From Candidatus Sericytochromatia bacterium (GTDB taxonomy: Bacteria > Cyanobacteriota > Sericytochromatia > S15B-MN24 > JAQBPE01): a stretch of 64,000 nt of DNA. Shown here piece after piece: positions 1 to 15,956 of this stretch (positions within the stretch are counted from its first letter, which is position 1; every line of letters begins with the position of its first letter). The position numbers were made by a program, and so were the translations under genes. The notes under the pieces are model-generated. The model was not told the DNA's origin. It ran no database searches and worked only from the letters and a program-made list of their open reading frames with translations. The stretch is taken from the NCBI GenBank assembly GCA_035284745.1, contig JAYKIL010000008.1, positions 197,087 to 261,086 of the forward strand, in the 5' to 3' direction.

Positions 1-1440
1 GGACTGCGGGGGATCGACATCGAGTGGACTCAGTACGTGTGCAACCCTTGAATCTGCGCCGAGTCGCTTCGAGAATGCCAGCAAGTCGCCAAAATGCTTG
101 ATTCCCAGTGCGTAATCCTTGCGCGGGGGCGTGTCGTGCCCCAAGGGTTGCTCGAGTCTCAATATGAGATTAATGGGAGCCACCAGTCCACCCTGCCCCA
201 TAGCCTGAAGTTCCTGGAATCCTCGCTCATAGGGTAACGCCCGGGGGAGCCAAGGGACCGTGGGAAAACCGCTTTTTAACCAGGCAACGGGCGCACTGAG
301 GACTAGAATTGGAAATAAAGCCGCCAGGACGTGGCGCCACGGGCGTTTCAAAACCCAGCGACACCAAGCCTCCCAGCGCTCTTTTGGATGACGGAGCCAT
401 GGGATATCTATGGAAAACCAACGGGGCGCATCGATAAAATTACCAATGAGAGCGAGACAGGCCGGCAGCAGCGTCAGTGCGAGCGTGACGGACACCAGTG
501 CAACCAAAAACCCCCCCACTCCCATCGAGCGACTGTCCAATACGGGCGTGGCGAGTAAACCAGCGAATCCGATGGCGACCGTCAGGCCCGATATCGCAAC
601 GGCGCGCCCGGCCGTTCGGACCGTCTCTCCGACAGCCTGTTGAACGCCTTCACCTGATTTGAGGGCTTCGCGAAAACGACTCACGACCAAAAGGGCGTAG
701 TCAATTCCCAACGCAAGGCCGAGCATGGAGGCGACGCTTTGGGTGTATGTTGACAGGTCGATCTGCGGTGCCAATAGGGCCAAAAGTCCAGAAGTCAGAA
801 CAATGGAGACAATGCCCATGAACAAGGGCACGCCGGCGGCGACCAGAGACCCGAAGGCAACCAAAAGGACGGCGGCGGTGAGGGGCAGGCTTCGCGCCTC
901 GGCCCTTCCCGTGTCGATGGTGCTGAAACGGTTAATGTCATAAGTCAGTGCAGCACGCCCCGTGACATTCCAAGAAAGACCTTCCAAGGCGCGTGCGTGA
1001 TGTTCACAGATCGCGTTGACGGTCGCCCGTACACTTGCCACAGCCATCTCCGCCGAAGCCACGTCACGGGCCCGCAGCCCAACCAGCAGAAGCGCGGCGT
1101 CCGGGTCCTCACTCTTAAAAGCACGGGTTCCCGGGTCTCCCGCCTTTAACACCTGAGCCACTTGTTTGTGTCTCGTTAGCGCCTGCTGTAGCTCACTGAG
1201 CAGGCCTTGACCCGAGGGTGTCGCGAGAAGGCGCTCGGGGACGCGAAGGGTAACAACCAGAGACTGGACGAAAGGGTTTGAAAATTCGTCCGCGAGCATT
1301 CGCTCGGCGATCGAAGAAGGTGTTCCAGCAATTGCACCCGTGCCGCTTCGAAGGTGAAGCGGAAGATCTTTGGCATAGCTTGAAGCCAAGACAACGAGCA
1401 ACAACCAGAAAGAGATGACCAGAAAGCGCCATCGGGCCAT
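1..1440 (-). CDS. MMPL/RND-superfamily membrane transporter, N-terminal ~480 aa (3' end beyond window start)
   Basis: Manual translation of minus strand from ATG at 1440 is open to position 1 (frame checked codon by codon). TM1 (RWRFLVISFWLLLVVLA), large periplasmic loop, then a 5-TM bundle (LPLTAAVLLVAFGSLVAAGVPLFMGIVSIVLTSGLLAL...DYALLVVSRFRE) typical of MMPL/SSD transporters. Not in ORF track because no stop codon lies in the window. Confidence 0.65.
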   Translation of the reverse strand, partial: MARWRFLVISFWLLLVVLASSYAKDLPLHLRSGTGAIAGTPSSIAERMLADEFSNPFVQSLVVTLRVPERLLATPSGQGLLSELQQALTRHKQVAQVLKAGDPGTRAFKSEDPDAALLLVGLRARDVASAEMAVASVRATVNAICEHHARALEGLSWNVTGRAALTYDINRFSTIDTGRAEARSLPLTAAVLLVAFGSLVAAGVPLFMGIVSIVLTSGLLALLAPQIDLSTYTQSVASMLGLALGIDYALLVVSRFREALKSGEGVQQAVGETVRTAGRAVAISGLTVAIGFAGLLATPVLDSRSMGVGGFLVALVSVTLALTLLPACLALIGNFIDAPRWFSIDIPWLRHPKERWEAWCRWVLKRPWRHVLAALFPILVLSAPVAWLKSGFPTVPWLPRALPYERGFQELQAMGQGGLVAPINLILRLEQPLGHDTPPRKDYALGIKHFGDLLAFSKRLGADSRVAHVLSPLDVDPPQS

Positions 1441-1580
1441 CCATTTGCCCCAGCGGCGAAATCGCTGGAAAGAGTCAACCACCGGGTCCCTCCAACCGCC
1501 CACAAGCAAGCGACAAGGGTGCTATGATGCAGGATGTGAGGCTTTAACGTCCAGACTTTGATGCGGTTTGGGTTCTCAAT

Positions 1581-2645
1581 TTGCGCAAGAGGTTAAGGTT
1601 GCGGGCAAAAAACTGGGATGACGAGGTGGGTGTGCAAGAGCTCCCATTCGGGCGGGAGGCTCTCGGCATCCTTCTCGGGGTGACCCCCGGCGGATGGCAT
1701 TTTGACCCCGTATTGCTCTCACATTGGCTCCGTTCCGACAGCCCATTTTTCCAGTGGGGGTCGGCGTCGCTCCTCTTCGTTGAAAATGCGGCCGCCCTGC
1801 TCGTTTCTCACGATTCCAGAATGACGAAGGGGCGCCTGGTCGCTTTCTCGGCACTGCGCGTGAACGAACGATTGTCAAGCGCGGAACAGGTTTCGGTGGT
1901 CGGTCGCTTGCTTCAGGCGGCCGCGCAGTGGGGGCGATCGCGGGGCGCGGAACGATTGGGAGGGCCACTGATGCTCTCAACATGGAACCCTTACCGAGTA
2001 CTTGCGGATGACAGGCCCAATGAGACAAATGGGTTTCCCGGCGAAGGAGTCGAGCCAGCCGCCTATAACTTACTCTACCGAGCCGCTGGTTTGCAGGTCA
2101 CCGATCGCTACGTGACCACTGCGCCCCCAGAAGATCCGGATTATTGGATGTTTCATTTGGATCGTGAGGCCGGGATTTCCAGCCGGCGCGCAGGCCGTGT
2201 CGCGGTTTTGCCCTTGTCGCCAGGGGATGGTTTACGCCTGGCTCCCCAAGTCTTTGAATGGCTCAATTCCTCATTTGTTCACAACCCCTATTTTGTGGCC
2301 CTCAGCGGGGCCGAGTTTGGGGATTGGCTGATGCAGTCGATGCCCGGCGGCGTCGAACCCGTTCGCTTGGGGGCCTTTGACGGCGATGGCACAGTCCTTG
2401 GGGTCCTGGCAGGTTTCGTGGCAGAGAACCGTGGAATTTTGAAAACCGTCGCGGTCCGTCCTGATGCCCAGGGGACCCGTTGTGCCATGGCCCTGACTTT
2501 TGAGTTTCACAGGCGCCTGTTTCATCGCGGCATCACGCAGGTTCAACACGCTCTGATGCACGTGAACAATTCGTCCGCTCGCATGAGTTCGAAATATGCC
2601 CGGCCGGTTCGCCACTATGTACTCTATGGCACTCACTGCGCTTGA
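1581..2645 (+). CDS. hypothetical protein, possible tandem GNAT-fold (Fem/MprF-C-like) acyltransferase
   Basis: 354-aa ORF. The C-terminal segment (GILKTVAVRPDAQGTRCAMALTFEFHRRLFHRGITQV) resembles GNAT motif A (Q/RxxGxG/A). It is first gene of a co-directional overlapping operon. Product assignment is weak. Confidence 0.45.
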   Translation: MRKRLRLRAKNWDDEVGVQELPFGREALGILLGVTPGGWHFDPVLLSHWLRSDSPFFQWGSASLLFVENAAALLVSHDSRMTKGRLVAFSALRVNERLSSAEQVSVVGRLLQAAAQWGRSRGAERLGGPLMLSTWNPYRVLADDRPNETNGFPGEGVEPAAYNLLYRAAGLQVTDRYVTTAPPEDPDYWMFHLDREAGISSRRAGRVAVLPLSPGDGLRLAPQVFEWLNSSFVHNPYFVALSGAEFGDWLMQSMPGGVEPVRLGAFDGDGTVLGVLAGFVAENRGILKTVAVRPDAQGTRCAMALTFEFHRRLFHRGITQVQHALMHVNNSSARMSSKYARPVRHYVLYGTHCA

Positions 2646-5205
2646 GTTTAATTGTTACCAGGCCACCTTGGGAGCGTCGAAGGTTGCTCCGGAGAAGGTG
2701 GCGCTTTGGCATTTACCAGATAAAAAAAATATTGACCAAGCCGTCACTTACGGTGAATTACGCGCCGAGATACATCGAGTTGCTTTCTCGTTACGACAGA
2801 AAGGCATCGGTTACGGTGACAAGGTGTTGGTGCTTTTGCCGATGTCGCCGGCCTTGTACTCGGTGATGTTCGCCGTCGCGATGGTGGGGGCTTCGTCCGT
2901 TTTCGTGGATCCTGTCGGCGGCGCGGCGCGTTTGATGGCAGCATTGGGGGATGCGAAGCCGCGGGCCGTCTTTATTCCGACGGGCGTGGCCCGTTTCTTC
3001 CGTTTGCTACCCGGTGTTCGGGATGTTCCGTGCGTTTTTTTTGTGAACATCGACCAGTCTCTGTTTCCAGGGGTGCCCGAAGACAGAGAGATTTGCCCCG
3101 TATCGCCAGATGACGCAATTTCATTGGTCTATACCACTGGGAGTACGGGAGCCCCCAAGCCTGTGAGGCGCTCTCATTCCGATATGCTTGCGATGCTAGC
3201 GGCATTGAATCAGCATCCAGCGAAGCATTCAGAGGCGGTGGATTTGCCGATGTGGCCTAATTTGGTATTTGATGCGCTGTGCCACGGAAGAACTTGCGTC
3301 ATACCGGCCGCGACAAGTGGACGCCTCGCCCTCTCTTCTCCAGATGTCTTGATAGGGCAGATGGAGCGATGTGGTGTCACCATGTGGATTGGGCCACCGG
3401 GACCTCTGGAGAAATTACTGGATGAGTTCGAAGCTCACGGGTCCCCGAGGGCCTTGCAACACATTTTCGTGGGGGGGGCGTTGGTGCCACCGCGCGTGTT
3501 GCGTCGGGCGCAAAATTGCCTTCCCTTGGAAGGAGAGGCTGTCGCGGTCTATGGCTCGACAGAAGCCGACCCTGTGGCGACGTTATCCGCTCGTGATCTG
3601 GTCGAAACCCCTGCCCGCGTGGGGGTGCCCATTGGGCGCCTTCATCCCAATATTCGCCTGCGTTTGGTCCAGCCGGACGTCGAGGCCAGTGAATGGAGTG
3701 GTGCCAGGGATGTGGTACCCGGAGAAGTGGGAGAGATTTGGGTCACGGGTCCTCACGTGAACACCTTTTTGGAACCCTCTGACCCTGGGGGGCACTCGAC
3801 CAAGATGGTTGACCCAACAGGAGTTGTTTGGCACCGGATGGGTGATTTGGCGTGGCAGGATAACCAACAATGCCTCTTCCTCATGGGCCGTTGGGCGCAA
3901 AGGGTTCAGCTTGCGGAACGTGTCCTTGACACGATTCCCGTCGAATTGACCGCTTTGGAAGTGGCGGGGGTCAAGCGAGCAGCGCTGCTGGGACGGAATA
4001 TGGAAGCTTGGGTTGTGGTCGAGCCGACTCCCCACGCGCGCCTTCACGAAGTGCAGGAGGCCTTAATACGGGCTCTGGAGCCCTTTTCGGTGACACGGGT
4101 CGTATTCCACCCGCAAATGCCCCTGGATGCTCGCCATATGAGCCGCATCGACTTGCAAAGCTTAACGCTTGACTTGCCCGACGATCCCCCGCGCTTGCCC
4201 CCTCTCGCCTCGCCGCCCCCTTTTCTCGAGGCGCTGCGCCTGTATTTGCGCGAACGCTTTCCCCTGCTGCAGACCCTGATCGGCGTATTGCTGATGGTCG
4301 CGACCGACGGCCTGGCAACTTTGGCTCTCATAGACCAACCTCTTCATCGCGAAGTGCTGCCCCAGATGATGATTGTGGTGGCAATCTTTATCGGTGTTTT
4401 CTTTCACCTGCGGGTTTTTGATGAACACAAAGACTGGGCCGTGGATCGCGTGGCCTTCCCAGAACGTATTTTGTCGCGGGGTTGGGTGACGCTTCGTCAA
4501 TTGCGGTTTTTGGCTGCGGGAGTGATCGTCAGTGAAATTCTTTTGGCCGCCACGACCAGCCTTGTCTTATTGGGGTGGACCCTTGTTCTCATTGCCTATT
4601 CCTGGTTGATGCTGCGTGAATTTTATGTGGGAGACTGGCTCAAACGACATCTGGTGATGTATGGGGCAAGCCACATGGCGATCATCTCGCTGATGTCCCT
4701 GGCTGCTTATGGAGCCATCCTTGATGCGCTGCCCTGGTCCGTTGTGAGCCATCTAAGTGGTGCTCAAGGCTTCGATGCCACCCTTCACGGCGTTCTGCCC
4801 GCCTTGGCATCCCGGGTTTGGCACCCAGGATTATTGCTTTTTGCCGGGATGAATTTCTGTTTGATCTACTCGCTGGAGGTGGCTCGTAAGATACGCACGC
4901 CCGAATTGGAGCGTCCGCAGGTCGACACCTATTCCCGGCGATTGGGGATCCCGGGGGCTCTGGTTTTGGTGCTCGCCACACAGTGTTCTGGACTCGCCAT
5001 GTTGGCCTTGGCGTCTTCCGCCCTTCACGTTCCCTGGGGAGTATTTTTATGGGGGGGGCTCACGATAGCATTTGTCGCGGTGCGCTATGGGATGTTCTAC
5101 TTGAATCCGACCCCAGCCGCTTCAAAAAGACTTGAGGCGACAGGCGCACTCACACTGGTGAACTTGAATGTTGCCCTGATCCTTTTCTGGGGAGTTTTTC
5201 GATGA
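2596..5205 (+). CDS. adenylate-forming (AMP-binding) enzyme fused to a C-terminal polytopic membrane domain
   Basis: Adenylation core motifs present: YTTGSTGAPKPV (A3), YGSTEA (A5), WHRMGDLAW (A7). The C-terminal ~320 aa have 8 or more predicted TM helices and an Asp-rich DEHKDWAVD (DxxxDxxxD) motif. The start may be an internal ATG (2617 or 2626), since the listed start overlaps the upstream gene by 50 nt. Confidence 0.7.
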   Translation: MPGRFATMYSMALTALEFNCYQATLGASKVAPEKVALWHLPDKKNIDQAVTYGELRAEIHRVAFSLRQKGIGYGDKVLVLLPMSPALYSVMFAVAMVGASSVFVDPVGGAARLMAALGDAKPRAVFIPTGVARFFRLLPGVRDVPCVFFVNIDQSLFPGVPEDREICPVSPDDAISLVYTTGSTGAPKPVRRSHSDMLAMLAALNQHPAKHSEAVDLPMWPNLVFDALCHGRTCVIPAATSGRLALSSPDVLIGQMERCGVTMWIGPPGPLEKLLDEFEAHGSPRALQHIFVGGALVPPRVLRRAQNCLPLEGEAVAVYGSTEADPVATLSARDLVETPARVGVPIGRLHPNIRLRLVQPDVEASEWSGARDVVPGEVGEIWVTGPHVNTFLEPSDPGGHSTKMVDPTGVVWHRMGDLAWQDNQQCLFLMGRWAQRVQLAERVLDTIPVELTALEVAGVKRAALLGRNMEAWVVVEPTPHARLHEVQEALIRALEPFSVTRVVFHPQMPLDARHMSRIDLQSLTLDLPDDPPRLPPLASPPPFLEALRLYLRERFPLLQTLIGVLLMVATDGLATLALIDQPLHREVLPQMMIVVAIFIGVFFHLRVFDEHKDWAVDRVAFPERILSRGWVTLRQLRFLAAGVIVSEILLAATTSLVLLGWTLVLIAYSWLMLREFYVGDWLKRHLVMYGASHMAIISLMSLAAYGAILDALPWSVVSHLSGAQGFDATLHGVLPALASRVWHPGLLLFAGMNFCLIYSLEVARKIRTPELERPQVDTYSRRLGIPGALVLVLATQCSGLAMLALASSALHVPWGVFLWGGLTIAFVAVRYGMFYLNPTPAASKRLEATGALTLVNLNVALILFWGVFR

Positions 5206-7805
5206 CTGATGTATGGACGGCAGAATGGTTGGCCTCGTCCGCTCAGCCCGCTCTCGATGCCTCGGCCGTTCGCTGGGGGGGGAAGGGAAGAGGATTGCTT
5301 CGGCTGGTTGCAGGCGGCTTCCAGGTTCCTGAGTTTTTTATTTTAAGTTCTGACGTGATGGTGAAAGCCCAAGAAACAGGCCAACTCTGTGCGGACTTTC
5401 CGGGCCTGAAAGAAACGTTGGCGTTAGCGCTTAAAAAGCTACCCGATGCCCCCGTTGCGGTGAGGAGCAGTGCCGCTGAAGAGGACGGCGACCGTTTTTC
5501 TCTGGCGGGCCAATTCGACACTTTTTTGGGGGTTCCGAAGGATGTGGACCAGGTTGCCGACAAGGTGGTGGCCTGCTGGGTTTCGCTGCAAGGCGAGAGG
5601 GCGACTGCTTACCGACAACAGCACGGTTTGTCATCCGAACGAGCCCGGATGGCAGTGGTCGTTCAAACCATGGTGCCCGCGGAGCGCTCTGTCGTTATTT
5701 TTTCCGGAAATCCAGCCACCGGAGATGCTGATGAAGTGGTCGTCTCTTCTGTGTGGGGCCTCGGAGCAGCCCTCGTATCTGGAGACACAGAGGGTGATAC
5801 CGAAATCTTCACTCCCGACGGCTCCTTGAAGTCACGCAGTACGGGTTCTCAGGCGCGTTATCACACGCTATTGGCAGGTGGGGAGATCGCCGAGCTCGCG
5901 CTTCCCTCCGAACGATTGGGTCAACCCGTCCTGTCTCCTGCGAACCGACAAGCTGCCCGCCGCCTGGCCCGAAACATTGCGGAGCATTTCGATCGCCCCG
6001 TTGATATTGAAGCCTCTTTTCTTGGTGATACGCTGTGGGTGCTTCAGGCGCGCCCCATCACGACCCCTTTGAGCCGCCACCGTCTGTTGTGGGACAACAG
6101 CAACATTGTTGAGAGCTATGACGGGGTTACGACGCCCCTGACTTTTTCTCATGCTTGCAACGCGTATCGCCTGGTATACACGCAGTTCGGCCGATTGTTG
6201 GGCGTCCCGCGTTCGACCTATGACAGGCATGAGCGCCAAATGATGACCTACATAGGACTGCTGAATGGCCGAGTCTACTACAACTTGTTGATGTGGTATC
6301 TCTCGATGGCGCACTTACCTGGCTACGCCTTCACCAGGGGGGCGATGGAAAACATGATGGGCGTGCGAGAAAGCCTGAATGTTGAGTTGCCGGAGGCCGG
6401 GGCGCCTCTCGAAAAGTGGACGAAGGACTTTCCACGGCTTGTCTGGATGCTGCTGCGGGGTTTGTGGGCCTTCGGCACCCTTCAGGTGCGCGTGAATCGG
6501 TTTTGGAGCAATTTTGAGCATGTGTATGCCCAATGGCATCAGCACAATTTCGACACCTGGGAAACTCCCCGCCTGATGGCTCTGTACCACGAATTGGTTG
6601 TGAAAGTGTTACATCGTTGGGAGGCTCCCATTCTCACGGACGTGGGCGCGATGCTTTCAATGGCTGCTTTGCAAAAAGCTCTCAAAGCATGGGTGGCTGG
6701 CGATGATGACTGGGTAGGCCCATTGCTTGTGGCGACGGGCGATATAGAAAGCACCCGTCCGACGGAACGCTTAATGGAAATCGCAGGTTTTCTTAAAGCG
6801 TCTCCTGCTGCGCTCGCGTTATTGCAGGGCGACGACGCCGCCTTCTGGCCCGGGTTGCACAAGAACACTGAATTGACGCCCATATTAAAGATGCTTGAAG
6901 ATTGGCTGGCCTGCTATGGCGATCGCGCGATGGGGGAACTCCGGCTTGAGGCGCCTACTCCGCGCGAAGAACCTGCGATGGTCGTGCCATTATTGAGGAC
7001 TTATGTGGCTCTGGAGCAGAAACGCGGGGGTGCTGGTCCTGAATCAGCAATGGAGGCCACCCAACGTGCCGAGTCAAGGCTTCACGAGGTTTTGCAGGGT
7101 CGCCCCGTTCGAGGCTGGGTGGTTCGCTGCTTGCTGCATTGGACACGCCAGCATGTTCGCAACCGCGAGAATATGCGATTTGCCCGCACCCGTTTAACCG
7201 GGGTCCTTCGCCGATTATTCAAAGCGGTGGGGCGTGACTTGGTTCAGGTGGGGATTTTAAGGCGTCCAGACGATGTTTTTTTTCTATCGGTGGAGGAACT
7301 CACGGCGTATGTCGACGGCCGCTCAATCACTCGCGATCTGGGGGCCTTGGCCGACATGCGTCGTCGTGAATACGCCGAATATCCAGCGCAGGAACCCCCC
7401 GACCGTTTTGTAACCATCGGATTGCCTGCGGTCAAAGTTCCTGTTGCGCAAACACTCAACAGCGACGAAATGGTCCTTCAAGGAACACCCTGCTCTCCGG
7501 GCGAAGTCGAAGCCCCTATTCGGATCATTCGGCATCCCAGTGAGGGAGGGGCCTTGCAGGGAGAAATCGTGGTGGCTGCGCGCACTGATCCGGGCTGGGT
7601 TGCATTGTATCCGGCAGCAAAGGGCTTACTGGTAGAGAAAGGCAGCGTTTTGTCACATTCCGCGATTGTGGCTCGAGAGATGGGTCTTCCGACAATTGTC
7701 GGGATTCCCGGGTTATGTCAGCGCCTACGGGGGGGTGAGCGGGTACATATGGATGGGAAGACGGGTGTGGTTCGCATTGTAGACGGGGAGGGAAACAGTG
7801 TCTAA
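5202..7805 (+). CDS. PEP-utilising enzyme family phosphotransferase (PpsA/rifampin-phosphotransferase-like, three-domain)
   Basis: N-terminal PPDK-type ATP-grasp nucleotide-binding domain (RWGGKGRGLLRL). C-terminal PEP-utilizers swivel domain with catalytic His (GSVLSHSAIVAREMGLPTIVGIPG). ~400-aa central domain of unknown specificity. Start overlaps upstream stop (ATGA). Confidence 0.75.
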   Translation: MTDVWTAEWLASSAQPALDASAVRWGGKGRGLLRLVAGGFQVPEFFILSSDVMVKAQETGQLCADFPGLKETLALALKKLPDAPVAVRSSAAEEDGDRFSLAGQFDTFLGVPKDVDQVADKVVACWVSLQGERATAYRQQHGLSSERARMAVVVQTMVPAERSVVIFSGNPATGDADEVVVSSVWGLGAALVSGDTEGDTEIFTPDGSLKSRSTGSQARYHTLLAGGEIAELALPSERLGQPVLSPANRQAARRLARNIAEHFDRPVDIEASFLGDTLWVLQARPITTPLSRHRLLWDNSNIVESYDGVTTPLTFSHACNAYRLVYTQFGRLLGVPRSTYDRHERQMMTYIGLLNGRVYYNLLMWYLSMAHLPGYAFTRGAMENMMGVRESLNVELPEAGAPLEKWTKDFPRLVWMLLRGLWAFGTLQVRVNRFWSNFEHVYAQWHQHNFDTWETPRLMALYHELVVKVLHRWEAPILTDVGAMLSMAALQKALKAWVAGDDDWVGPLLVATGDIESTRPTERLMEIAGFLKASPAALALLQGDDAAFWPGLHKNTELTPILKMLEDWLACYGDRAMGELRLEAPTPREEPAMVVPLLRTYVALEQKRGGAGPESAMEATQRAESRLHEVLQGRPVRGWVVRCLLHWTRQHVRNRENMRFARTRLTGVLRRLFKAVGRDLVQVGILRRPDDVFFLSVEELTAYVDGRSITRDLGALADMRRREYAEYPAQEPPDRFVTIGLPAVKVPVAQTLNSDEMVLQGTPCSPGEVEAPIRIIRHPSEGGALQGEIVVAARTDPGWVALYPAAKGLLVEKGSVLSHSAIVAREMGLPTIVGIPGLCQRLRGGERVHMDGKTGVVRIVDGEGNSV

Positions 7806-8757
7806 CGCGCTCATTGATACCGCTATTTTGCATCGTCAGGCTTCAGCCCGCCCCCTGGACCTTGACAGTTTACCGTGGGCCGATGGCGTGAATCCGGAAA
7901 ATTGGTTTGCTCCGGAGTCGATGACTCACTTACTTCAGAGTCCGAGCTATCGCCATTTCAATGAAACAGAGAAGAAGCTGTATGCCCGTACCGTTGCCTT
8001 CGCCAAGGCAGAGTTGTTCATCTATTTTGAAGAGCACCTGTTGGCCCCGGTGATACAACGACTGATTTCAGAGCCCCAGCGATTCAGTATCGAACCCGGG
8101 CTTCTTTCTTGCCTTCGCGACTTTCACCGGGAGGAGTTACAACACACCGAGATGTTCTGGCGCCTGCTCGAAACCGCTGCGCCGGAACTTTATCCGACGC
8201 GAAATCTTCGTATTTACCGCAGTTATTTTAGCCTCAAACTGCTGCCGGGTGCCCTTCGCCAGTTCCCTGATACTTTAATACTTTGGGTCTGGCTTGCGAT
8301 GTTCATCGAGGAACTGACGGTCGACCTGTACCGGCAGTATCGACAAGACGACCGGGTTGAACCACTTTTTGAGGCCGTCTATCAGGCCCATATGATGGAT
8401 GAAATGCGTCACGTGTCGATTGACCACCACGTTCTGGAGGCACTCTGGGATACTGCTCCGCGCTGGCTGCGCGTGATGAATGTTGGCCTTCTCGATCACA
8501 TCGTATCAAAGGTGACCTCTCCCGTAGCGGCTCCCCGTGCGGCGATCGAAGAGGTATTGCTGCATTCGCCTCATTTATGGAACCATCGGGATGAGTTTTT
8601 TCGCGATATCGCCGCCTTGGGGCAAAATATGGCGTATCAGGAGGCCCACTATTCCCGGGAGACCTTGCCTCGCACCTTTGGATTGTTGGATCGATATCCT
8701 GAGATGCGGGCACTTCGTAAGGGGTTTCCAGCCTATCGCCCGCGATCACTCGCGTGA
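7798..8757 (+). CDS. ferritin-like diiron-carboxylate oxygenase (AurF / acyl-ACP-desaturase-like)
   Basis: Two E...ExxH half-sites (FEEHLL...REELQHTEMF and FIEELTV...DEMRHVSIDHH) arranged as in four-helix-bundle diiron enzymes. 8-nt overlap with the upstream gene. Confidence 0.5.
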   Translation: MSNALIDTAILHRQASARPLDLDSLPWADGVNPENWFAPESMTHLLQSPSYRHFNETEKKLYARTVAFAKAELFIYFEEHLLAPVIQRLISEPQRFSIEPGLLSCLRDFHREELQHTEMFWRLLETAAPELYPTRNLRIYRSYFSLKLLPGALRQFPDTLILWVWLAMFIEELTVDLYRQYRQDDRVEPLFEAVYQAHMMDEMRHVSIDHHVLEALWDTAPRWLRVMNVGLLDHIVSKVTSPVAAPRAAIEEVLLHSPHLWNHRDEFFRDIAALGQNMAYQEAHYSRETLPRTFGLLDRYPEMRALRKGFPAYRPRSLA

Positions 8758-8779
8758 CTGGTGAGTTCTAGGACTTCGC

Positions 8780-9898
8780 GTGCCGTCGCCCCCCTTTGCC
8801 GATGAAAATAGCCTGGCCGCACAGCCGTTCTTTCGAGAGATTGGGTATTCATCGTGCTGGGAGGATCCGGTTGTTTTGCGCCAGGCACTGGCTGTTCGCT
8901 CGGGAGACTGTGTGCTGTCGATTGCATCGGGCGGATGCAATGTATTGAGCCTGTTGCTCGACGATCCAGCGTCCATTTTATGTGTCGATTTAAACCCTCA
9001 TCAACTGACGCTGTTACGCCTCAAGATAGCGGCCATTCGACAACTAGAATACTCTGAACTGCTTGAATTGTTGGGGGTTCGCGTATCAAGCCGTCGGATT
9101 GAACTCCTTGATACACTGTTCCCAGAATTGCCTTTGGCCGATCGAGAATATTGGAGGGCACGTCGACGACAGATTGCTCAGGGACTGTATCGCACGGGTC
9201 GCACCGATCGATATTTGATGGCTTTTGGCACCCTTGTAAGGACCTTGTTTGGCCAGAGCAAAGTCAAGCAGTTTTTTGGTTTCGCCGAACTGGACGCGCA
9301 GATTGAATTTTACCGCTCGCATTGGGATGGATGGCGTTGGCGCAAGCTGTTCGAGGTTTTCTTCCACCGCCAAATTATCTCCCGCGCCAAGGACCCCAGC
9401 CATTTTCGCTATGTTGAGTTTGATCGATTCGGGGAGAGGATCTACGCCCGCGTGGAGCGTTTATTCACCACCGGCCTTGTGCGCGAAAATTACTTTTTGG
9501 GCCTCATCATGTTGGGGCACTACGCCTCCGAGACTGCGCTGCCGCCATACCTTTTGGAAAACAATCTTCCACTGGTGCGCGCACGCCTCGATCGCTTGAT
9601 TCTTCGCCACGCCAGCCTTTCAGCGGTCCTGGAACCCGTGGGACCGGCGCGCTTCGATGCGTTTAATTTGTCTAATTTGTACGACTGGCTCAGTGACGAC
9701 GCGCGGATCGCCTCCCTGAGACAGGCATCAATGGCCGCCACACCAGGCGCCCGTTGGTGCTACTGGAGTACACTGGAGCCGCGCCTGGCCCCTGTACTAG
9801 AGGGCGTGGACCTCCAGCCGGAACGCTCATGCGAGCTCGCGTATGCCGATAGGTTTCCCTATGCACACTTTGAAACCGGTACTTTTTTTGCTCAATGA
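8780..9898 (+). CDS. BtaA-like (DUF3419) S-adenosylmethionine-dependent 3-amino-3-carboxypropyl transferase
   Basis: N-terminal IGYSSCWEDP motif and SIASGGCN Rossmann-like segment recall the betaine-lipid synthase BtaA / DUF3419 family. ~370 aa size fits. Confidence 0.55.
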   Translation: MPSPPFADENSLAAQPFFREIGYSSCWEDPVVLRQALAVRSGDCVLSIASGGCNVLSLLLDDPASILCVDLNPHQLTLLRLKIAAIRQLEYSELLELLGVRVSSRRIELLDTLFPELPLADREYWRARRRQIAQGLYRTGRTDRYLMAFGTLVRTLFGQSKVKQFFGFAELDAQIEFYRSHWDGWRWRKLFEVFFHRQIISRAKDPSHFRYVEFDRFGERIYARVERLFTTGLVRENYFLGLIMLGHYASETALPPYLLENNLPLVRARLDRLILRHASLSAVLEPVGPARFDAFNLSNLYDWLSDDARIASLRQASMAATPGARWCYWSTLEPRLAPVLEGVDLQPERSCELAYADRFPYAHFETGTFFAQ

Positions 9899-9905
9899 CT
9901 CGTGC

Positions 9906-10862
9906 TCAAGCGGACGGGGATACCACTCGCAAGCCCGCAGGGATCACCGCTATCTCAAGGGTTTCTGCCCGGGCCAGGGGCTCACCGTCGGCCATAAAGG
10001 ATAACGGTTCATCCCCAACGAGGGTAAATGTTTTCCCTTCCCCCAATTCAACTTCCTCGGCCCCTTCGTGAGCCCCTGCCCGGTTTAATAGGGCTGCAAT
10101 CCAGAGGCTTCTCGCACGCGTCCGCCAATCAATGCGACAGTACCCCAATGAACCGTCGAATTGCCGGGTGTGGGGACACGATGTCACGGTTCGGCCGATG
10201 AACGGTTGGTTTTGAATAAACAGGGCCAAAATAACGCTTTGAACCCTATCTCGCCCATCGACACATAGTGTGACAGTCTGTGGGATTTTCGCTGCACTCA
10301 GCACGAGCCAACCACTAAAGAGGGGATAGGCCGCGCTTCCCAAGGCCCGGGTGAAAGCGCCTAGCAATCCGCTGCGGCTTTTTAGCGCATGCACCCCTTC
10401 TGCGACGTCATTGACAATTCCAATGCCCCCCCCTGTTAAAAAATAACGACCATTGACGCGCCCCACATCAATCGTTCGAATTTCGCCGTTCAGGATTGCC
10501 CGACAGCTTTCCCGTGGGGTCAAGGGAATTTTCAGTGCTCGGGCCAAGTCATTCGCAGTTCCGGCAGGGATGATCCCCAGAGCAGTTTCAGTATTGACGA
10601 GTTGATTGGCGACGACGTTGAGAGAGCCATCTCCTCCCACGACGACGACGACATCCACCCCCTCAACAACAGATTCCCGGGCCACCCGACGCATCGCGTC
10701 GAGTGATCCGGGAACAACGACCTCGTGATCGGTGCCATCAAAAGCAGCCCGCACGATTCCAAGCCAACGCCTGTCGGCCCCATTGCGTGCCGCATGATTG
10801 ACCAAAATGCGGTATCGCGTCGGGGAACTCAAGGCCTCGTTAGTTGTAATAGCCGAATCCAA
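9906..10862 (-). CDS. diacylglycerol-kinase-family lipid kinase (YegS/BmrU/DgkB-like)
   Basis: DAGK_cat signature VVVVGGDGSLNVVANQL and GIIPAGTANDLARAL. Convergent with the plus-strand operon; translationally overlapped by the upstream OMP gene. Confidence 0.75.
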   Translation of the reverse strand: MDSAITTNEALSSPTRYRILVNHAARNGADRRWLGIVRAAFDGTDHEVVVPGSLDAMRRVARESVVEGVDVVVVVGGDGSLNVVANQLVNTETALGIIPAGTANDLARALKIPLTPRESCRAILNGEIRTIDVGRVNGRYFLTGGGIGIVNDVAEGVHALKSRSGLLGAFTRALGSAAYPLFSGWLVLSAAKIPQTVTLCVDGRDRVQSVILALFIQNQPFIGRTVTSCPHTRQFDGSLGYCRIDWRTRARSLWIAALLNRAGAHEGAEEVELGEGKTFTLVGDEPLSFMADGEPLARAETLEIAVIPAGLRVVSPSA

Positions 10863-11565
10863 TCAAGCCCACGTCGACATTCGTGTCCATCGAGCTGACG
10901 TAGTTTAACCAAAGATAAGCATTTTCGTTAAACAAATACTTGGCCCCAGCACCCCAGCGGCGATCCGGGGCCGTCGCCATGTTGCCCAGATTCCAGTTGT
11001 ACTGACCGTTCGCGCCCACTGAAATTCGATCATTCACCCAAAGATCGGCCCCGAGGGCTGCAGCCCCTCGAAACCCACCATTCATCAAATAACCCACCTC
11101 AGGTTGCGCGGTGAGTTCCAAGCCCCCGAATTTCAACAGCAATGAATTTTTGTAGGTAGCCCCGTAGTCCATCGCGCCACCCGGGGCTAAGTTGAATCGA
11201 CCGATATAGGCACCGCCCCACGACCATCCATTTCCCGCCGCATAGCGCTGCCTCAGTCCTATTTGGCTCTCTGCTGACAGTAAAACCGCCCAGTTTAGAC
11301 CATCGTCGATCGCGCCGCCTGCGCCCGCCAAACCAAAGGGCAAGGTGGGAGCCTGGGTGTTCAAACGCTGATTGAGAAGGCCCCCCGCCACGCCAAACTC
11401 GTTATGTCCAACTCCGAGATAGACCGGCGAGTAGACCAAACCACCCGCGGAAATAATTCGGGCCGGCGAAGTTACAATGGCGTCATCGGCAGCAGCCTGC
11501 GCTGGAGTGATGAAAGCGGGAAAGGTCATCAGTGCGCACGCAACCGCCAGCAGTTTTTTCTTCAT
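10840..11565 (-). CDS. outer-membrane beta-barrel protein with signal peptide
   Basis: Signal peptide MKKKLLAVACALMTFPAFITPAQAAADD. Gly/aromatic-rich alternating pattern to the C-terminus (GLIGFGYYN). Start is 23 nt inside the kinase gene's upstream neighbour overlap. Confidence 0.55.
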   Translation of the reverse strand: MKKKLLAVACALMTFPAFITPAQAAADDAIVTSPARIISAGGLVYSPVYLGVGHNEFGVAGGLLNQRLNTQAPTLPFGLAGAGGAIDDGLNWAVLLSAESQIGLRQRYAAGNGWSWGGAYIGRFNLAPGGAMDYGATYKNSLLLKFGGLELTAQPEVGYLMNGGFRGAAALGADLWVNDRISVGANGQYNWNLGNMATAPDRRWGAGAKYLFNENAYLWLNYVSSMDTNVDVGLIGFGYYN

Positions 11566-12373: not shown

Positions 12374-13327
12374 TCAGTTGTCGTTGGCTGCCAATTGGAT
12401 GTGCCGACGAACCGATAACAGGCTTCCCACCGCCCCGAGGGCAATGCCCAAGACCGTAAGAACGGCGAGGGTTTCAGCAAGGGCGAATGGCTCTAGGCTC
12501 ATTGGAATGAATGGAAAGAGTTCCTGCCATTTTGTCAGCGTAAATGAACGCCACGCAATGAGGACGACAGAGGTCAAGATCGCTCCAAATAGGCCAAATA
12601 AAATTCCCTCAAGCAAAAAAGGCCACGCGATGAATGAATTGCTGGCACCCACCAGGTGCATTATCTCTATTTCGCGCCGACGCGCCATGACCGTTAAGCG
12701 GATGGTATTCATAATCACCGCCAAGCTCGCCAAAGCCAGAATCGCACCAATTCCAAGTCCGGCTGCGCGAATGAAGGCCGAAAATTCTGACAGCTTCTTA
12801 AGTAATTCGGCCCCGTATTGAATGTCCTCAATGCCCGGCATTTTTGCGATACGCTCAGCCAAGACGGGCGTTAGATCAGGACTCTTTGATTGAACGGTAA
12901 AGCTATTCGGCAACGGGTTCGCGTCGAGTAAAGAGTCAAAGGTCATGCGCGAACGCATATCCTGTTGCATGTCTTTCCACGCTTGGTCTTTGGTAATTAA
13001 CTTGAGGCTTTCAACCTCAGGAAATTCTTTGATAGCGGTTTCGATGCCACGGGGGTCCGCATCGTCCGACAAAAAAACGGCGATTGGAACTTTACCCCCG
13101 ACCTGATAGCTGACGCGGTGTAGGTCTTGAACGATCAACCAAAACCCACCCAGTATACTGAGGCTCACGGCAATGGTCGCAACGACCAGCCAACTCATCA
13201 GGGCCGAACGCGCCATGCTGGACAGCGCCTCGTGACTGACAAATTCGGCAATCCTTAAAAAGGTTTTAATTGACTCCAACAGAATAAACCCCGCGTGCTT
13301 GGTCTTGGACCAGTTTTCCACCATCAA
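12374..13327 (-). CDS. ftsX: cell-division ABC transporter permease FtsX
   Basis: 317 aa. N-terminal cytoplasmic segment, large periplasmic loop, three C-terminal TMs. Overlaps and is co-oriented with ftsE. Confidence 0.8.
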   Translation of the reverse strand: MMVENWSKTKHAGFILLESIKTFLRIAEFVSHEALSSMARSALMSWLVVATIAVSLSILGGFWLIVQDLHRVSYQVGGKVPIAVFLSDDADPRGIETAIKEFPEVESLKLITKDQAWKDMQQDMRSRMTFDSLLDANPLPNSFTVQSKSPDLTPVLAERIAKMPGIEDIQYGAELLKKLSEFSAFIRAAGLGIGAILALASLAVIMNTIRLTVMARRREIEIMHLVGASNSFIAWPFLLEGILFGLFGAILTSVVLIAWRSFTLTKWQELFPFIPMSLEPFALAETLAVLTVLGIALGAVGSLLSVRRHIQLAANDN

Positions 13328-13955
13328 TGGTAAGAACTCTGCGCCTCATGTTGTCAACGACCAGTTTATTGTGGGTGGCCACCACCACCGTCGTTCCGTG
13401 CAAATTTATCTTGGTTAGCAAGCGCATAATATCCCATGAGGTTTCCGGGTCGAGGTTGCCCGTTGGTTCATCAGCGATGAGCAGTGGAGGAGTATTTACG
13501 ATGGCCCGCGCCAGGCAAACGCGTTGTTGCTGGCCTCCTGACAACTCGGTCGGCAAAGCATCGGCGTAATCTCTGAGGCCGACCAGATCTAAACTGCTCC
13601 GCACGCGGTGTTGCATCTCTGCTTTGCCAGTTCCAATGATCCGCAACGCGAAGGCCACGTTATCATAAACACAGCGGTCCATGAGTAATTTGTAATCTTG
13701 AAAGACGACCCCAATGCGCTGGCGCAGTTGAGGCAGGTTGCGCGAAGAGATTTGCCCAATATCGACGCCGCTGATGATCACCTGGCCCGTCGTCGGTGTT
13801 TCGGCCCGATACAGCAGCTTCATGAGTGTCGATTTCCCGGCGCCCGAGGGGCCGACGATAAAGACGAACTCCCCTTGCTGAACCTCTAAATTCAGGCCGT
13901 GCAACGCCCGGACTCCGTTAGGATAAAGTTTGGTCACTTGCCTGAGACTGATCAC
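13266..13955 (-). CDS. ftsE: cell-division ATP-binding protein FtsE
   Basis: Walker A GPSGAGKST, ABC signature LSGGQQQRV, Walker B LLIADEPTGNLD. 229 aa. Confidence 0.9.
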   Translation of the reverse strand: MISLRQVTKLYPNGVRALHGLNLEVQQGEFVFIVGPSGAGKSTLMKLLYRAETPTTGQVIISGVDIGQISSRNLPQLRQRIGVVFQDYKLLMDRCVYDNVAFALRIIGTGKAEMQHRVRSSLDLVGLRDYADALPTELSGGQQQRVCLARAIVNTPPLLIADEPTGNLDPETSWDIMRLLTKINLHGTTVVVATHNKLVVDNMRRRVLTIDGGKLVQDQARGVYSVGVN

Positions 13956-14749
13956 GGCTTTTCCTCCACCCTCTGGGTGTTGCTATTCTGGGTCAGCACT
14001 CGATAAACGAATGGCGGCAATGTGGAGCGCATACGCTTCATACGCCACGGTTCTTGAATTAATCGGTATAACCATTCTAAATGTAAGCGTTGAAAGGTGG
14101 CAGGTGCCCGGCGCACTCTGCCAGCAAAAACGTCAAGAGATCCTCCGACGCCGATTGCGATGGTGGCCTGCAATTCGTTTCTATGGCGTTCAATCCACTT
14201 TTCCTGGCGGGGAACCCCAAGCGCCACCAATAGAATGTCTGGGCGAGCGGCCTTTATCTTATCCAGAAGGTCTGGTTCATCTTCGGGGCTGAAGAAGCCG
14301 TGATGACAGCCTGTGATCTGTAAGCCTGAATACCTTTGCTGCAACGCAACCGCAGCGGCCTCAGCGACCCCCGGCTTTCCTCCCAGTAGATAGAGCCGAT
14401 GGCCGGTTTGTGCGATGCGTGCGACCAGGGCCTGCACCAGATCGACCCCTGCCACTTTCACAACACGAGGGCCACTCTGTTGCCGCGCGATGGCCCACAC
14501 CACACCAATGCCATCAGGGGTTACCAGCGACGCTCGCTTTATGATATCCCCCAAATCTGCGTCCTCCAGAGCTTGTATCGCCATCTCAGCGTTCATGGTC
14601 ACGACGTGAAATATTTCAGGACACTCCGTTTTTCTGTTCTGCAGAAAATTCATCAGGCAACTGCAAGCCTCTTCGAGGCTTAAAGCATCAACGGGAAGGC
14701 CGAGAACATTTGCTCGTTTCGTTTCAGGTGGCACGAGACCTCCTTGCAA
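13952..14749 (-). CDS. tagA: WecB/TagA/CpsF-family glycosyltransferase (N-acetylmannosaminyltransferase-like, GT26)
   Basis: 265 aa. GLPVDALSLEE...HVVTMNAEM...PDGIGVVWA pattern of GT26 family. Confidence 0.7.
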   Translation of the reverse strand: MQGGLVPPETKRANVLGLPVDALSLEEACSCLMNFLQNRKTECPEIFHVVTMNAEMAIQALEDADLGDIIKRASLVTPDGIGVVWAIARQQSGPRVVKVAGVDLVQALVARIAQTGHRLYLLGGKPGVAEAAAVALQQRYSGLQITGCHHGFFSPEDEPDLLDKIKAARPDILLVALGVPRQEKWIERHRNELQATIAIGVGGSLDVFAGRVRRAPATFQRLHLEWLYRLIQEPWRMKRMRSTLPPFVYRVLTQNSNTQRVEEKP

Positions 14750-15956
14750 TATCCACCGCCAATTGGGAGTTTTTCATTGCCGCTTCAGTCCAAGCAGCTC
14801 TCAACGATTGTAAATGACTTCGTAAGGCGCCCCGCCGAGCCCACGCCTGATGCAAGGCGGATTGAAGTTCTGCGCTGTCTGCTAACGATTCAACCGATGG
14901 AATGGTGGGCAGGTTCGCAAGACGGGCGAATGCCTCGATTTTGGGATCGTAAATGATGCCAATGGCCGGCGTGGAAGCCGCGGCAGCCATGATCAAGGCG
15001 TGTAGCCGCATTCCAATGAGAAGGTCAACGCGCCCCAAGACTCCCAGCATTTCCTTGGCAGTGAGCGCCTGTTTCGCCATTACCACGACTGGTTTTTGGC
15101 CTTCTGGGCGCGCGGCCAGGCAATGTGACAACTCCTCGAGAAGCCAATCGTCCCCCGGTTTGTGAAACGGAAGCAGGAGAATCTGAGCATCCCAAGCCCG
15201 AGCGCATTGCGCCAGAACAGCAGAAAACGCCTTCAGTTGCTTCTCCAGCCACGCGGGCCACGGGCGGATGGACACGGCGACCACCGGTCGGACACGGTTA
15301 AGGCCCCACTGTTCCCACAGTGCGTCTGTCAGGTCAGCCGCCTGTGGTTTGGATGCGAGAACGGGATCGACCGTTAAGGATATCTCTTTGGAGCGAAGGC
15401 CGCATTCAATGAGTAAGTCTCGAGAGGCCGGGTCGCGAACCGTGATGGAATCGACACGGGATAGGACACCACCCACCATTCGACGACTCCAAAACGACTT
15501 CAAAGGCCCTACGCCTTGGGCAAAAACCATACGGGGAACGCCAGCCAGTCTCGCCAGTTCCAGAATGCCCAGATAGTATGGGACAGAGGCAGGCCCCGTC
15601 ACATCTTGAAGTAAACTGCCGCCGCCACTTATCAACAGGTCAGCACGGCGCAACGCTTGCCAAATTAATGGCGGCGAGACTCTTGAGACGTAATGTAGGC
15701 GAGGATCGTGCTGACTCTTAACGGCTTGCCCCAGTGCGATCACTTCTAGGTCCGATTCGATGGCCCAAAGTTGCTCGCAAACAGCCTCTAGAATGGCTTC
15801 GTCACCCAGGTTATGAAACCCAAAGTAACCGGAAATGACGATCCTGAGGGTTTTCTTTTCAGCGGAGAAACTCGCCATCGGGCGCTTGCTCTTTTCTTTT
15901 CGGGCCCTATCGTGGACTCTAGTGGTTCTTATTTTGCTGATCGATGGCCCAGCCAA
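14724..15956 (-). CDS. csaB: polysaccharide pyruvyl transferase CsaB
   Basis: N-terminus LRIVISGYFGFHNLGDEAILEA is the CsaB/pyruvyl-transferase hallmark. 410 aa. Sits immediately upstream of tagA as in SCWP pyruvylation loci. Confidence 0.8.
   Translation of the reverse strand: MAGPSISKIRTTRVHDRARKEKSKRPMASFSAEKKTLRIVISGYFGFHNLGDEAILEAVCEQLWAIESDLEVIALGQAVKSQHDPRLHYVSRVSPPLIWQALRRADLLISGGGSLLQDVTGPASVPYYLGILELARLAGVPRMVFAQGVGPLKSFWSRRMVGGVLSRVDSITVRDPASRDLLIECGLRSKEISLTVDPVLASKPQAADLTDALWEQWGLNRVRPVVAVSIRPWPAWLEKQLKAFSAVLAQCARAWDAQILLLPFHKPGDDWLLEELSHCLAARPEGQKPVVVMAKQALTAKEMLGVLGRVDLLIGMRLHALIMAAAASTPAIGIIYDPKIEAFARLANLPTIPSVESLADSAELQSALHQAWARRGALRSHLQSLRAAWTEAAMKNSQLAVDIARRSRAT

Follow-up and report, generated by a model that had tools for sequence, protein, structure and literature searches.

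An AurF-family diiron gene and a BtaA-family gene close a five-gene operon in a nine-gene, probably lipid-building locus conserved across phyla

The DNA analysed here, referred to below as the window, is a 64-kb stretch of contig JAYKIL010000008.1 from a Candidatus Sericytochromatia bacterium. It carries two adjoining open reading frames (ORFs) on the same strand, 7798-8757 (319 aa) and 8780-9898 (372 aa), both with a GTG start, which match the interval 7798-9898 where an initial annotation of this DNA had placed a diiron oxygenase-like protein next to a BtaA-like transferase. These two genes close a five-gene operon, which itself belongs to a nine-gene, probably lipid-building locus conserved across phyla. 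The features of the locus, with phosphoenolpyruvate and S-adenosylmethionine abbreviated as PEP and SAM, are as follows.

1-1482, minus strand: MMPL/RND-type lipid exporter, divergent from the operon; N-terminal ~490 aa only, as the gene runs past the window start.
1581-2645, plus strand: tandem-GNAT-like acyltransferase of ~350 aa, first gene of the operon; start possibly at 1599.
2596-4215, plus strand: acyl-adenylate (ANL) ligase domain, residues 1-540 of an 869-aa fusion protein.
4216-5205, plus strand: UbiA-superfamily intramembrane transferase domain, residues 541-869 of the same fusion.
5202-7805, plus strand: Rph/PEP-synthase-type ATP-dependent phosphotransferase, 867 aa; its start overlaps the preceding stop by 4 nt.
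7798-8757, plus strand: AurF-family diiron oxygenase, 319 aa (PF11583); its start overlaps the stop of the PPDK-like phosphotransferase gene by 8 nt.
8780-9898, plus strand: DUF3419/BtaA-family SAM-dependent transferase, 372 aa (PF11899).
9906-10862, minus strand: lipid kinase of the YegS/DgkB type, convergent with the operon and separated from the DUF3419 stop by 7 nt.
10840-11565, minus strand: protein of 241 aa whose N-terminus resembles a signal peptide, without a family match; its membership of the system is uncertain.

The operon consists of five tightly packed cistrons, encoding the tandem GNAT, the ligase-UbiA fusion, the phosphotransferase, the AurF-like protein (cistron 4) and the DUF3419 protein (cistron 5). 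At the first three junctions the genes overlap by 50, 4 and 8 nt, at the last they are 22 nt apart, and the sequence GGGAGGG stands immediately 5' of the AurF-like gene's start codon; the five cistrons are probably translationally coupled. A scan for promoters and terminators returned nothing beyond chance. The operon is flanked by the divergent MMPL exporter upstream and the convergent lipid kinase downstream.

The 319-aa protein is an AurF-family diiron protein by its Pfam match, its metal ligands and its model fold. It scores 58.9 bits against Pfam AurF (PF11583; cut-off 29.6) and carries the ligand pattern E78, E113-x2-H116, E171/E172 and H198-x3-E202-x2-H205, encoded at 8029-8031 (E78), 8134-8136 (E113), 8143-8145 (H116), 8308-8313 (E171/E172), 8389-8391 (H198), 8401-8403 (E202) and 8410-8412 (H205). 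The E..ExxH/E..ExxH motif read in the initial annotation is therefore correct, with H198 to be added to it as a third histidine. These ligands are conserved: they are invariant in 8/8 close homologues (43-78% identity), and an exhaustive HMMER search, which returned 566 cluster representatives at E <1e-3, yielded 154 sequences for a wider count, in which these three histidines and four carboxylates are conserved in at least 149 sequences and the extra histidine in 153. AurF and CmlI characteristically have such an extra His ligand. When the protein is aligned, remotely and by profile, with the AurF chain in PDB 3chh, its ligands coincide with the equivalent Glu and His residues there, which we take to be E101, E136, H139, E196, H223, E227 and H230. 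The position aligned to R96 of AurF, presumably the arginine that binds the carboxylate of the substrate 4-aminobenzoate, is L73 in the window protein and Leu, Ser or Asn in homologues, in the same remote alignment.

An AlphaFold2 model of this protein (pLDDT, the predicted local distance difference test, 88.7) has AurF (E 2e-5, template-modelling (TM) score 0.6-0.68, 15-17% identity) and CmlI as its closest Foldseek matches, with E values ranging from 2e-5 to 7e-4. R2lox proteins give the next-best matches and ribonucleotide reductase R2 also follows, while acyl-ACP desaturase is matched poorly (probability 0.69, TM 0.28). Of the two kinships that had been proposed for the protein, that with AurF stands and that with acyl-ACP desaturases is weak. 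Sequence searches of PDB chains gave only marginal matches for both proteins of the pair, a profile run against PDB sequences reached AurF and CmlI at E 0.16-0.8 only, and the NCBIfam scan contained no model naming either protein. Members of the AurF-like subfamily occur as natural fusions to a membrane FA_desaturase (P0138, P0241), to MMPL (P0163) and to an AMP-binding plus carrier domain. AurF itself oxygenates an aryl amine, and CmlI, PvfB and AzoC are further PF11583 members that oxygenate nitrogen. The AurF homologues TsnB7 and DnfA hydroxylate the amide of glutamine to give glutamate monohydroxamate (PMC11160463). A relationship to CylC-type halogenases was considered and dropped for want of evidence.

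The 372-aa protein is, as judged by homology, a full-length member of the BtaA (DUF3419) family with SAM-type motifs. It scores 229.9 bits against PF11899 and aligns over its full length with BtaA of Sinorhizobium sp. K101 (29% identity, 370 aa, E 3e-33), which is encoded in a btaA-btaB operon where the DUF3419 gene directly precedes a 251-aa methyltransferase ORF with a VLEVGCGTGRN motif. The two DUF3419 proteins have in common the motifs WEDP, S-x-x-S-G-G-C-N, V-D-L-N-P, R-E/D-NYF and LPPYL. S47-I-A-S-G-G-C-N54 (8918-8941) and V69-D-L-N-P73 are present in all 27 aligned family members as well; W27-E28-D29 and the acidic D70 (8987-8989) are further sites. The assignment as BtaA-like thus holds, and the motifs expected for SAM binding are in place. 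A neighbour-joining tree with one reference BtaA sets that reference on a long separate branch, and the cluster-linked copies are not grouped in a single clade. NCBIfam lacks a model for BtaA. One natural-product paper mentions DUF3419, as a flanking gene outside the cly cluster.

The absence of btaB, the second gene of the betaine-lipid pathway, is borne out within the 64-kb window: a tblastn search with a 221-aa BtaB query, taken from an in-frame Met of the Sinorhizobium sp. K101 251-aa ORF, found none (best E 1.2). Nor did the related cluster loci covered by this search contain a credible BtaB match; the single sub-threshold one (L020, E 7e-4, 35% over 54 aa) lies inside that locus's DUF3419 gene. 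Many DUF3419 homologues of 33-39% identity are 610-640-aa fusions with an N-terminal PEMT-type methyltransferase (PF04191). These fusions (P0049, P0057, P0072 and many more) occur in Bacteroidota, Ignavibacteria and Aminicenantes and not in the window; they could be single-polypeptide betaine-lipid synthases in which a PEMT-type methylase replaces the BtaB type.

The GNAT protein has weak Pfam GNAT matches in its C-terminal half, and a profile of seven cluster homologues matches the tandem GNAT 3tt2 with E 5e-6; the gene co-occurs with the ligase in most cluster versions. The ligase domain matches PF00501 (E 6.8e-50), and in NCBIfam it scores best with PRK09274, a fatty-acid CoA ligase family (295 bits, short of the cut-off), and next with the beta-lactone synthetase OleC (191 bits). 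Another AMP-binding ligase, a stand-alone protein of 604 aa, is encoded 26 kb from the cluster at 36110-37924 on the minus strand (PF00501 E 1e-87, with an AMP-binding_C_3 domain).

The UbiA domain of 329 aa is missed by PF01040 in the window, and that model finds most of its homologues. Its AlphaFold2 model (pLDDT 94.4) retrieves ApUbiA, DGGGP synthase, AfUbiA, the Rv3806c phosphoribosyltransferase and UBIAD1 as top Foldseek matches. The human HMGCR-UBIAD1 complex (8djk) is also among the fold matches. The first Asp-rich motif, FDEHKDWAVD at 4417-4446, keeps the DxxxDxxxD pattern, and R66, D69, K72, D73 and D77 of the domain are invariant. The second motif, EVARKIRTPELE at 4876-4911, is atypical: the canonical DxxxD is not present in the domain, and the conserved residues are E221, R224, K225 and E232 (E..RK..E). 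UbiA is a separate gene in L005, L016, L020, L022 and L025; the ligase-UbiA fusion recurs in L015, where one 853-aa ORF spans both matches. The phosphotransferase matches the ATP-grasp domain PPDK_N (E 1e-49) and the PEP-utilizers mobile domain (E 4e-21), has a precomputed Rph_4th match, and carries its catalytic swivel histidine H819 (7656-7658) in a GSVLSH motif. Its best NCBIfam model is NF004881 (737.5 bits against a cut-off of 883), followed by Rph (274) and PigC (270), with RedH also matched; no equivalog-level NCBIfam match to PEP synthase, Rph or PigC was obtained.

Both flanking genes belong to recognizable families. The exporter ORF gives a family hidden Markov model (HMM) match over 1-1521 on the minus strand (E 1.6e-210), and the full gene on the identical contig L001 encodes 764 aa with PF03176; MMPL genes lie inside the cluster in L002, L003, L005, L015, L016 and L025. 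The lipid kinase matches DAGK_cat (E 2e-25) and YegS_C, exceeds the TIGR00147 cut-off (119.7 against 118.65 bits), and adjoins the cluster in L002, L003, L005, L012, L015 and L025. The 241-aa protein is kept beside the kinase only in the closest Sericytochromatia loci. Beyond the cluster, 12374-15956 on the minus strand encodes FtsX, FtsE, a WecG-type glycosyltransferase and a polysaccharide pyruvyl transferase, and because this order is identical in L002 and L003, the locus has a stable chromosomal synteny in Sericytochromatia. Farther on, two adjoining minus-strand ORFs of 431 and 406 aa (27603-28898 and 28899-30119) have no Pfam match at E 1e-5.

Homologue look-ups, one genome scan and one plasmid search place the gene set, with order and strand shuffled, in at least seven phyla, namely Cyanobacteriota, Planctomycetota, Bacillota, Pseudomonadota, Actinomycetota, Fibrobacterota and Bdellovibrionota. 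Sericytochromatia carriers are L002, L003 and L012, together with a rearranged version (L005/L013) that adds an FA_hydroxylase gene, directly downstream in L005. Metagenome-assembled genomes (MAGs) carry the set under the labels Streptomycetaceae (L014), Fibrobacteres (L015), Enterobacterales/Alteromonadales (L016 and L017) and Bdellovibrio (L018), and L025 and L026 are two more metagenome or MAG loci. Three carriers are cultured: the planctomycete Aeoliella mucimassa (L020; CP036278, 1,522,651-1,543,619), Roseinatronobacter sp. S2, on a plasmid (L022; NZ_CP121116, 119,890-136,713), and Brevibacillus laterosporus B9 (L023; NZ_CP011076, 456,583-481,590); these ranges include flanking DNA of at most 12 kb besides the cluster. 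The L022 plasmid is annotated with UbiA, a PEP/pyruvate-binding protein, DUF3419, two hypothetical proteins and an AMP-binding protein.

UbiA and the phosphotransferase are the tightest pair. They stand alone in L021, and the phosphotransferase accompanies UbiA in every opened UbiA- or DUF3419-seeded locus and in 13/14 AurF-seeded loci that have UbiA. Nearly all versions also have the ligase, GNAT and DUF3419. Accessories that come and go are the AurF-like gene, an HMG-CoA reductase of class-I-like type, MMPL, a DAGK- or APH-type kinase, a START-like protein, PLD-type genes and a ~450-aa protein. The HMG-CoA reductase paralogue (TIGR00533, 332 bits against a cut-off of 441.8) is found in at least nine cluster versions, spread over many phyla, and is absent from the window; a role in mevalonate supply or in the reduction of an acyl-CoA to an alcohol was only considered. 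The ~450-aa protein, which matches neither a Pfam nor an NCBIfam family, is encoded immediately after DUF3419 in six versions of the cluster and is likewise absent from the window version. The positions of both are given here.

HMG-CoA reductase paralogue: L014 10912-12207; L015 2338-3660; L020 17290-18573, minus strand; L025 5634-6875; L026 3578-4801.
~450-aa protein: L020 14749-16122, minus strand; L026 5895-7259; L022 4932-6251; L023 at ~13.0 kb; L014 at ~19 kb; L047 at ~10.1 kb.

The initial annotation had treated the AurF-like and DUF3419 genes as a functionally coupled two-gene module, and this is where it fails. A metagenome scan seeded by an AurF-like profile (12-sequence alignment) returned 80 loci, which were scored with family HMMs built for this analysis; the 58 AurF-seeded loci of at least 6 kb were counted, with the caveat that the scan is pattern-seeded, that many contigs are truncated and that a gene scored absent may lie further away. 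The window type, which we call class I, accounts for 21/58 loci, and DUF3419 is nearby in 11 of these 21. A second context, class II, accounts for 34/58, and DUF3419 is nearby in none of the 34; the remaining 3/58 fit neither class. Class II loci have a very regular order of Rieske oxygenase, GH3-type adenylating enzyme, 378-aa unknown protein, AurF-like protein, membrane FA_desaturase and more Rieske oxygenases, a context without description in the literature as far as we found.

Class II loci: L019 4864-14044; L061, L063, L070, L077, L082, L102 and 27 others, a Udaeobacter MAG among them.

Within class I, the gene adjoining the AurF-like one varies, being the phosphotransferase, the ligase, HMG-CoA reductase, GNAT or DUF3419; outside the window, AurF-like and DUF3419 genes also adjoin in L059. 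Each gene occurs without the other: the AurF-like gene lacks DUF3419 in four complete 20-kb class I loci (L015, L033, L034 and L040), and DUF3419 has no AurF-like gene within reach in Aeoliella, Roseinatronobacter, Brevibacillus, L025 and L026. In 16/21 class I and 27/34 class II loci, many of them on truncated contigs, there is an adenylating enzyme, either an ANL ligase or GH3. Hence, DUF3419 belongs with the core of UbiA, phosphotransferase, ligase and GNAT, and the AurF-like protein is an optional accessory, probably acting on a lipid-type substrate, whose steadiest companion is an adenylating, amide-forming enzyme and not DUF3419. On contig Ga0209979_1000016 the cluster is split (L027 and L008, 353-390 kb), with the AurF-like part ~15 kb from DUF3419; an AraC-type regulator and a 1835-aa protein with Ser/Thr-kinase, GAF, PAS and His-kinase domains lie between the two parts.

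Taken together, these observations suggest that an unusual lipid of the amino-acid type is synthesised and exported by the locus and tailored by the oxygenase, a reading to which we give a probability of about 0.4. Its product would be a membrane or envelope lipid, made and exported, because the locus combines an MMPL exporter, a lipid kinase and a membrane-embedded UbiA domain. The UbiA domain may join a diphosphate-activated lipid or head-group unit to a membrane acceptor, with the phosphotransferase or a kinase preparing the phosphorylated substrate or modifying the product. By analogy with BtaA, DUF3419 would move the 3-amino-3-carboxypropyl group of SAM onto a hydroxyl. The ligase and GNAT could then N-acylate the resulting free amine in place of the trimethylation performed by BtaB, and no BtaB would be needed because of that acylation. 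The AurF-like protein would act as an optional tailoring oxygenase on a lipid-bound intermediate. A lipid substrate is indicated by the fusions to FA_desaturase, MMPL and AMP-binding plus carrier domains, by the MMPL and lipid-kinase neighbours and by the FA_hydroxylase of L005. Oxygenation of nitrogen (amine or amide to N-hydroxy or hydroxamate) is the most likely reaction, because the PF11583 enzymes that are described or known to us act on nitrogen, the three-His site is kept and both contexts contain amide-forming enzymes; oxidation of chain C-H bonds, its chief competitor, is less likely.

Several points weigh against this reading. The chemistry assigned to DUF3419 is extrapolated, at 29% identity, from a protein that is itself orthologous to a characterised BtaA; UbiA departs from the canonical DxxxD at its second motif, which therefore gives no pointer to the donor; and the reading does not account for the roles of the phosphotransferase and, in other versions, of HMG-CoA reductase. 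Fusion or adjacency with fatty-acid desaturases and hydroxylases fits C-H oxidation equally. Finally, co-occurrence was counted on metagenome contigs that were found by a pattern-seeded scan, are often truncated and were scored with analysis-built HMMs, and a gene scored absent may lie elsewhere in the genome, as the ~15-kb separation in L027/L008 illustrates.

A more specific picture, which we regard as a long shot, is a hitherto unseen class of envelope lipid in which UbiA and the Rph-type phosphotransferase attach an isoprenoid or alkyl anchor, SAM supplies a homoserine ether head, and the nitrogen is acylated and, where the AurF-like protein is present, as in this Sericytochromatia bacterium, N-hydroxylated to a lipid hydroxamate. 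If true, the lipid hydroxamate would be a membrane-bound, metal-binding or redox-active head group.

It is doubtful, yet conceivable, that the AurF-like protein is instead, in line with the second option of the initial annotation, a soluble diiron hydroxylase or desaturase that oxidises a carbon of the acyl or alkyl chain of the cluster lipid, in the manner of the ornithine-lipid hydroxylases OlsC, OlsD and OlsE. The desaturase and MMPL fusions point this way, as do the fixed order of AurF-like gene and FA_desaturase in 34 loci, the FA_hydroxylase gene in L005 and the Leu, Ser or Asn at the position aligned to AurF R96. R2lox proteins, the next-best structural match after AurF and CmlI, bind fatty acids. 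Set against this, 153/154 sequences keep the extra histidine of AurF and CmlI, acyl-ACP desaturase is a poor structural match, and we know of no characterised PF11583 member that oxidises carbon.

The pathway envisaged in the initial annotation, where DUF3419 acts as a BtaA making diacylglyceryl-homoserine and the AurF-like protein replaces BtaB by oxygenating the alpha-amine to an N-hydroxy, nitroso or nitro group, is improbable. It accommodates the adjoining genes of the window and L059, the lack of btaB in the window, the conserved AurF-type three-His site with the family precedent for N-oxygenation, and a neighbouring kinase of the diacylglycerol-kinase type. However, the two genes are near each other in only 11/58 seeded loci and in none of the commonest context, three cultured strains have DUF3419 versions without the AurF-like gene, and full 20-kb AurF-like loci do without DUF3419. 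Moreover, the genes that accompany DUF3419 (UbiA, phosphotransferase, ligase and GNAT) are all dispensable for that pathway, and the last two could divert the amine elsewhere. We therefore do not favour a homoserine amine as the site of N-oxygenation, although it is possible; the co-occurrence data have lowered its likelihood.

Slighter still is the chance that the adenylating enzyme, like TsnB9, the adenylating-type partner that transfers hydroxylamine, captures the hydroxylamine on an activated carboxylate after the AurF-like protein has N-hydroxylated a common amide such as glutamine, giving a lipid hydroxamic acid. An adenylating enzyme is indeed present in most loci of both contexts, and TsnB7 and DnfA set the precedent on the glutamine amide (PMC11160463), but the clusters showed no partner of the glutamine-amidotransferase or asparagine-synthetase type, and the desaturase and MMPL fusions suggest that the substrate itself is a lipid.

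Least probable of all is a secondary-metabolite cluster for a prenylated aromatic acid, in which UbiA prenylates a para-substituted benzoate, the ligase activates its carboxylate, an aryl amine is oxidised by the AurF-like protein and, as with Rph and flavonoid phosphate synthetase, a phenol is modified by the phosphotransferase. In its favour, UbiA and AurF have para-substituted benzoates as their textbook substrates (4-hydroxybenzoate and 4-aminobenzoate, respectively), the phosphotransferase matches Rph, PigC and RedH, and the distribution is patchy with a plasmid location in Roseinatronobacter. Against it, the Pfam-labelled neighbours (some flanking ORFs being unscanned) include no chorismate, 4-aminobenzoate or polyketide genes, the residue that the remote alignment places at the presumed carboxylate-binding Arg of AurF is not conserved, the genes that recur beside the cluster encode an MMPL exporter, a lipid kinase, a START-like protein and PLD-type proteins, and the synteny beside housekeeping genes is stable in Sericytochromatia.

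The enzyme types assembled here (BtaA-like, UbiA-type, Rph-type, ligase and GNAT) are known singly, whereas for their conserved combination in at least seven phyla we found no description. No paper on UbiA, phosphotransferase, ligase, GNAT, DUF3419 and AurF-like protein together was found in the full-text literature searched, a coverage that leaves out most subscription journals. By sequence, each protein is a distant member of a known family, at 15-17% identity to AurF and 29% to BtaA, with the ligase and phosphotransferase below every NCBIfam equivalog cut-off. BtaA homologues are usually read as markers of betaine lipids, which are used to save phosphorus; because many of the DUF3419 genes in bacteria, a large share of them, belong to another pathway, such annotations may mislead. 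The results also suggest that a large branch of the AurF-type enzymes, a group familiar from the metabolism of hydroxylamine and from aromatic antibiotics, is dedicated to lipids. The cluster is widespread, and because it occurs in cultured strains (Aeoliella mucimassa, Brevibacillus laterosporus B9 and Roseinatronobacter sp. S2), its product is open to direct testing.

Compared with the BtaA/BtaB pathway to diacylglyceryl-N,N,N-trimethylhomoserine (Rhodobacter, Sinorhizobium, Agrobacterium; BTA1 in algae), the window has a full-length DUF3419 homologue with common motifs; in contrast to that pathway, the window and related loci have no BtaB by tblastn, and DUF3419 is embedded with UbiA, phosphotransferase, ligase and GNAT genes that the pathway does not use. 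With AurF, CmlI, TsnB7 and DnfA (PF11583), the window protein has in common the Pfam match and the seven-residue site, and its closest solved folds are AurF and CmlI. It differs from AurF and CmlI in its 15-17% identity, in a profile E of only ~0.2, in a hydrophobic or small residue at the position remotely aligned to R96 and in a gene context that is lipid and not aromatic, with FA_desaturase, MMPL and ligase-carrier fusions in the subfamily.

Rph, the prodiginine ligases PigC and RedH, and PEP synthase have the same three-part architecture and GSVLSH motif as the window phosphotransferase, with NCBIfam scores from 737 to 250 bits. Unlike them, the window enzyme falls below every equivalog cut-off and is paired with a UbiA-type membrane enzyme, often through an overlapping stop and start; no description of this UbiA-phosphotransferase pairing was found in the literature searched. 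The UbiA superfamily (4-hydroxybenzoate prenyltransferase, archaeal DGGGP synthase, the phosphoribosyltransferase Rv3806c, UBIAD1) has the fold and the first DxxxDxxxD in common with the window domain, whose E..RK..E second motif, fusion to an adenylate-forming ligase (window and L015) and escape from PF01040 set it apart.

The closest functional analogy is with the ornithine-lipid pathway (OlsB/OlsA or OlsF), where a GNAT-type enzyme N-acylates an amino-acid head and lineage-specific oxygenases (OlsC, OlsD, OlsE) optionally oxidise the product. The window proteins are, however, unrelated in sequence to OlsB and OlsF; here, the amino-acid unit would be drawn from SAM through DUF3419, and a UbiA-phosphotransferase pair is present.

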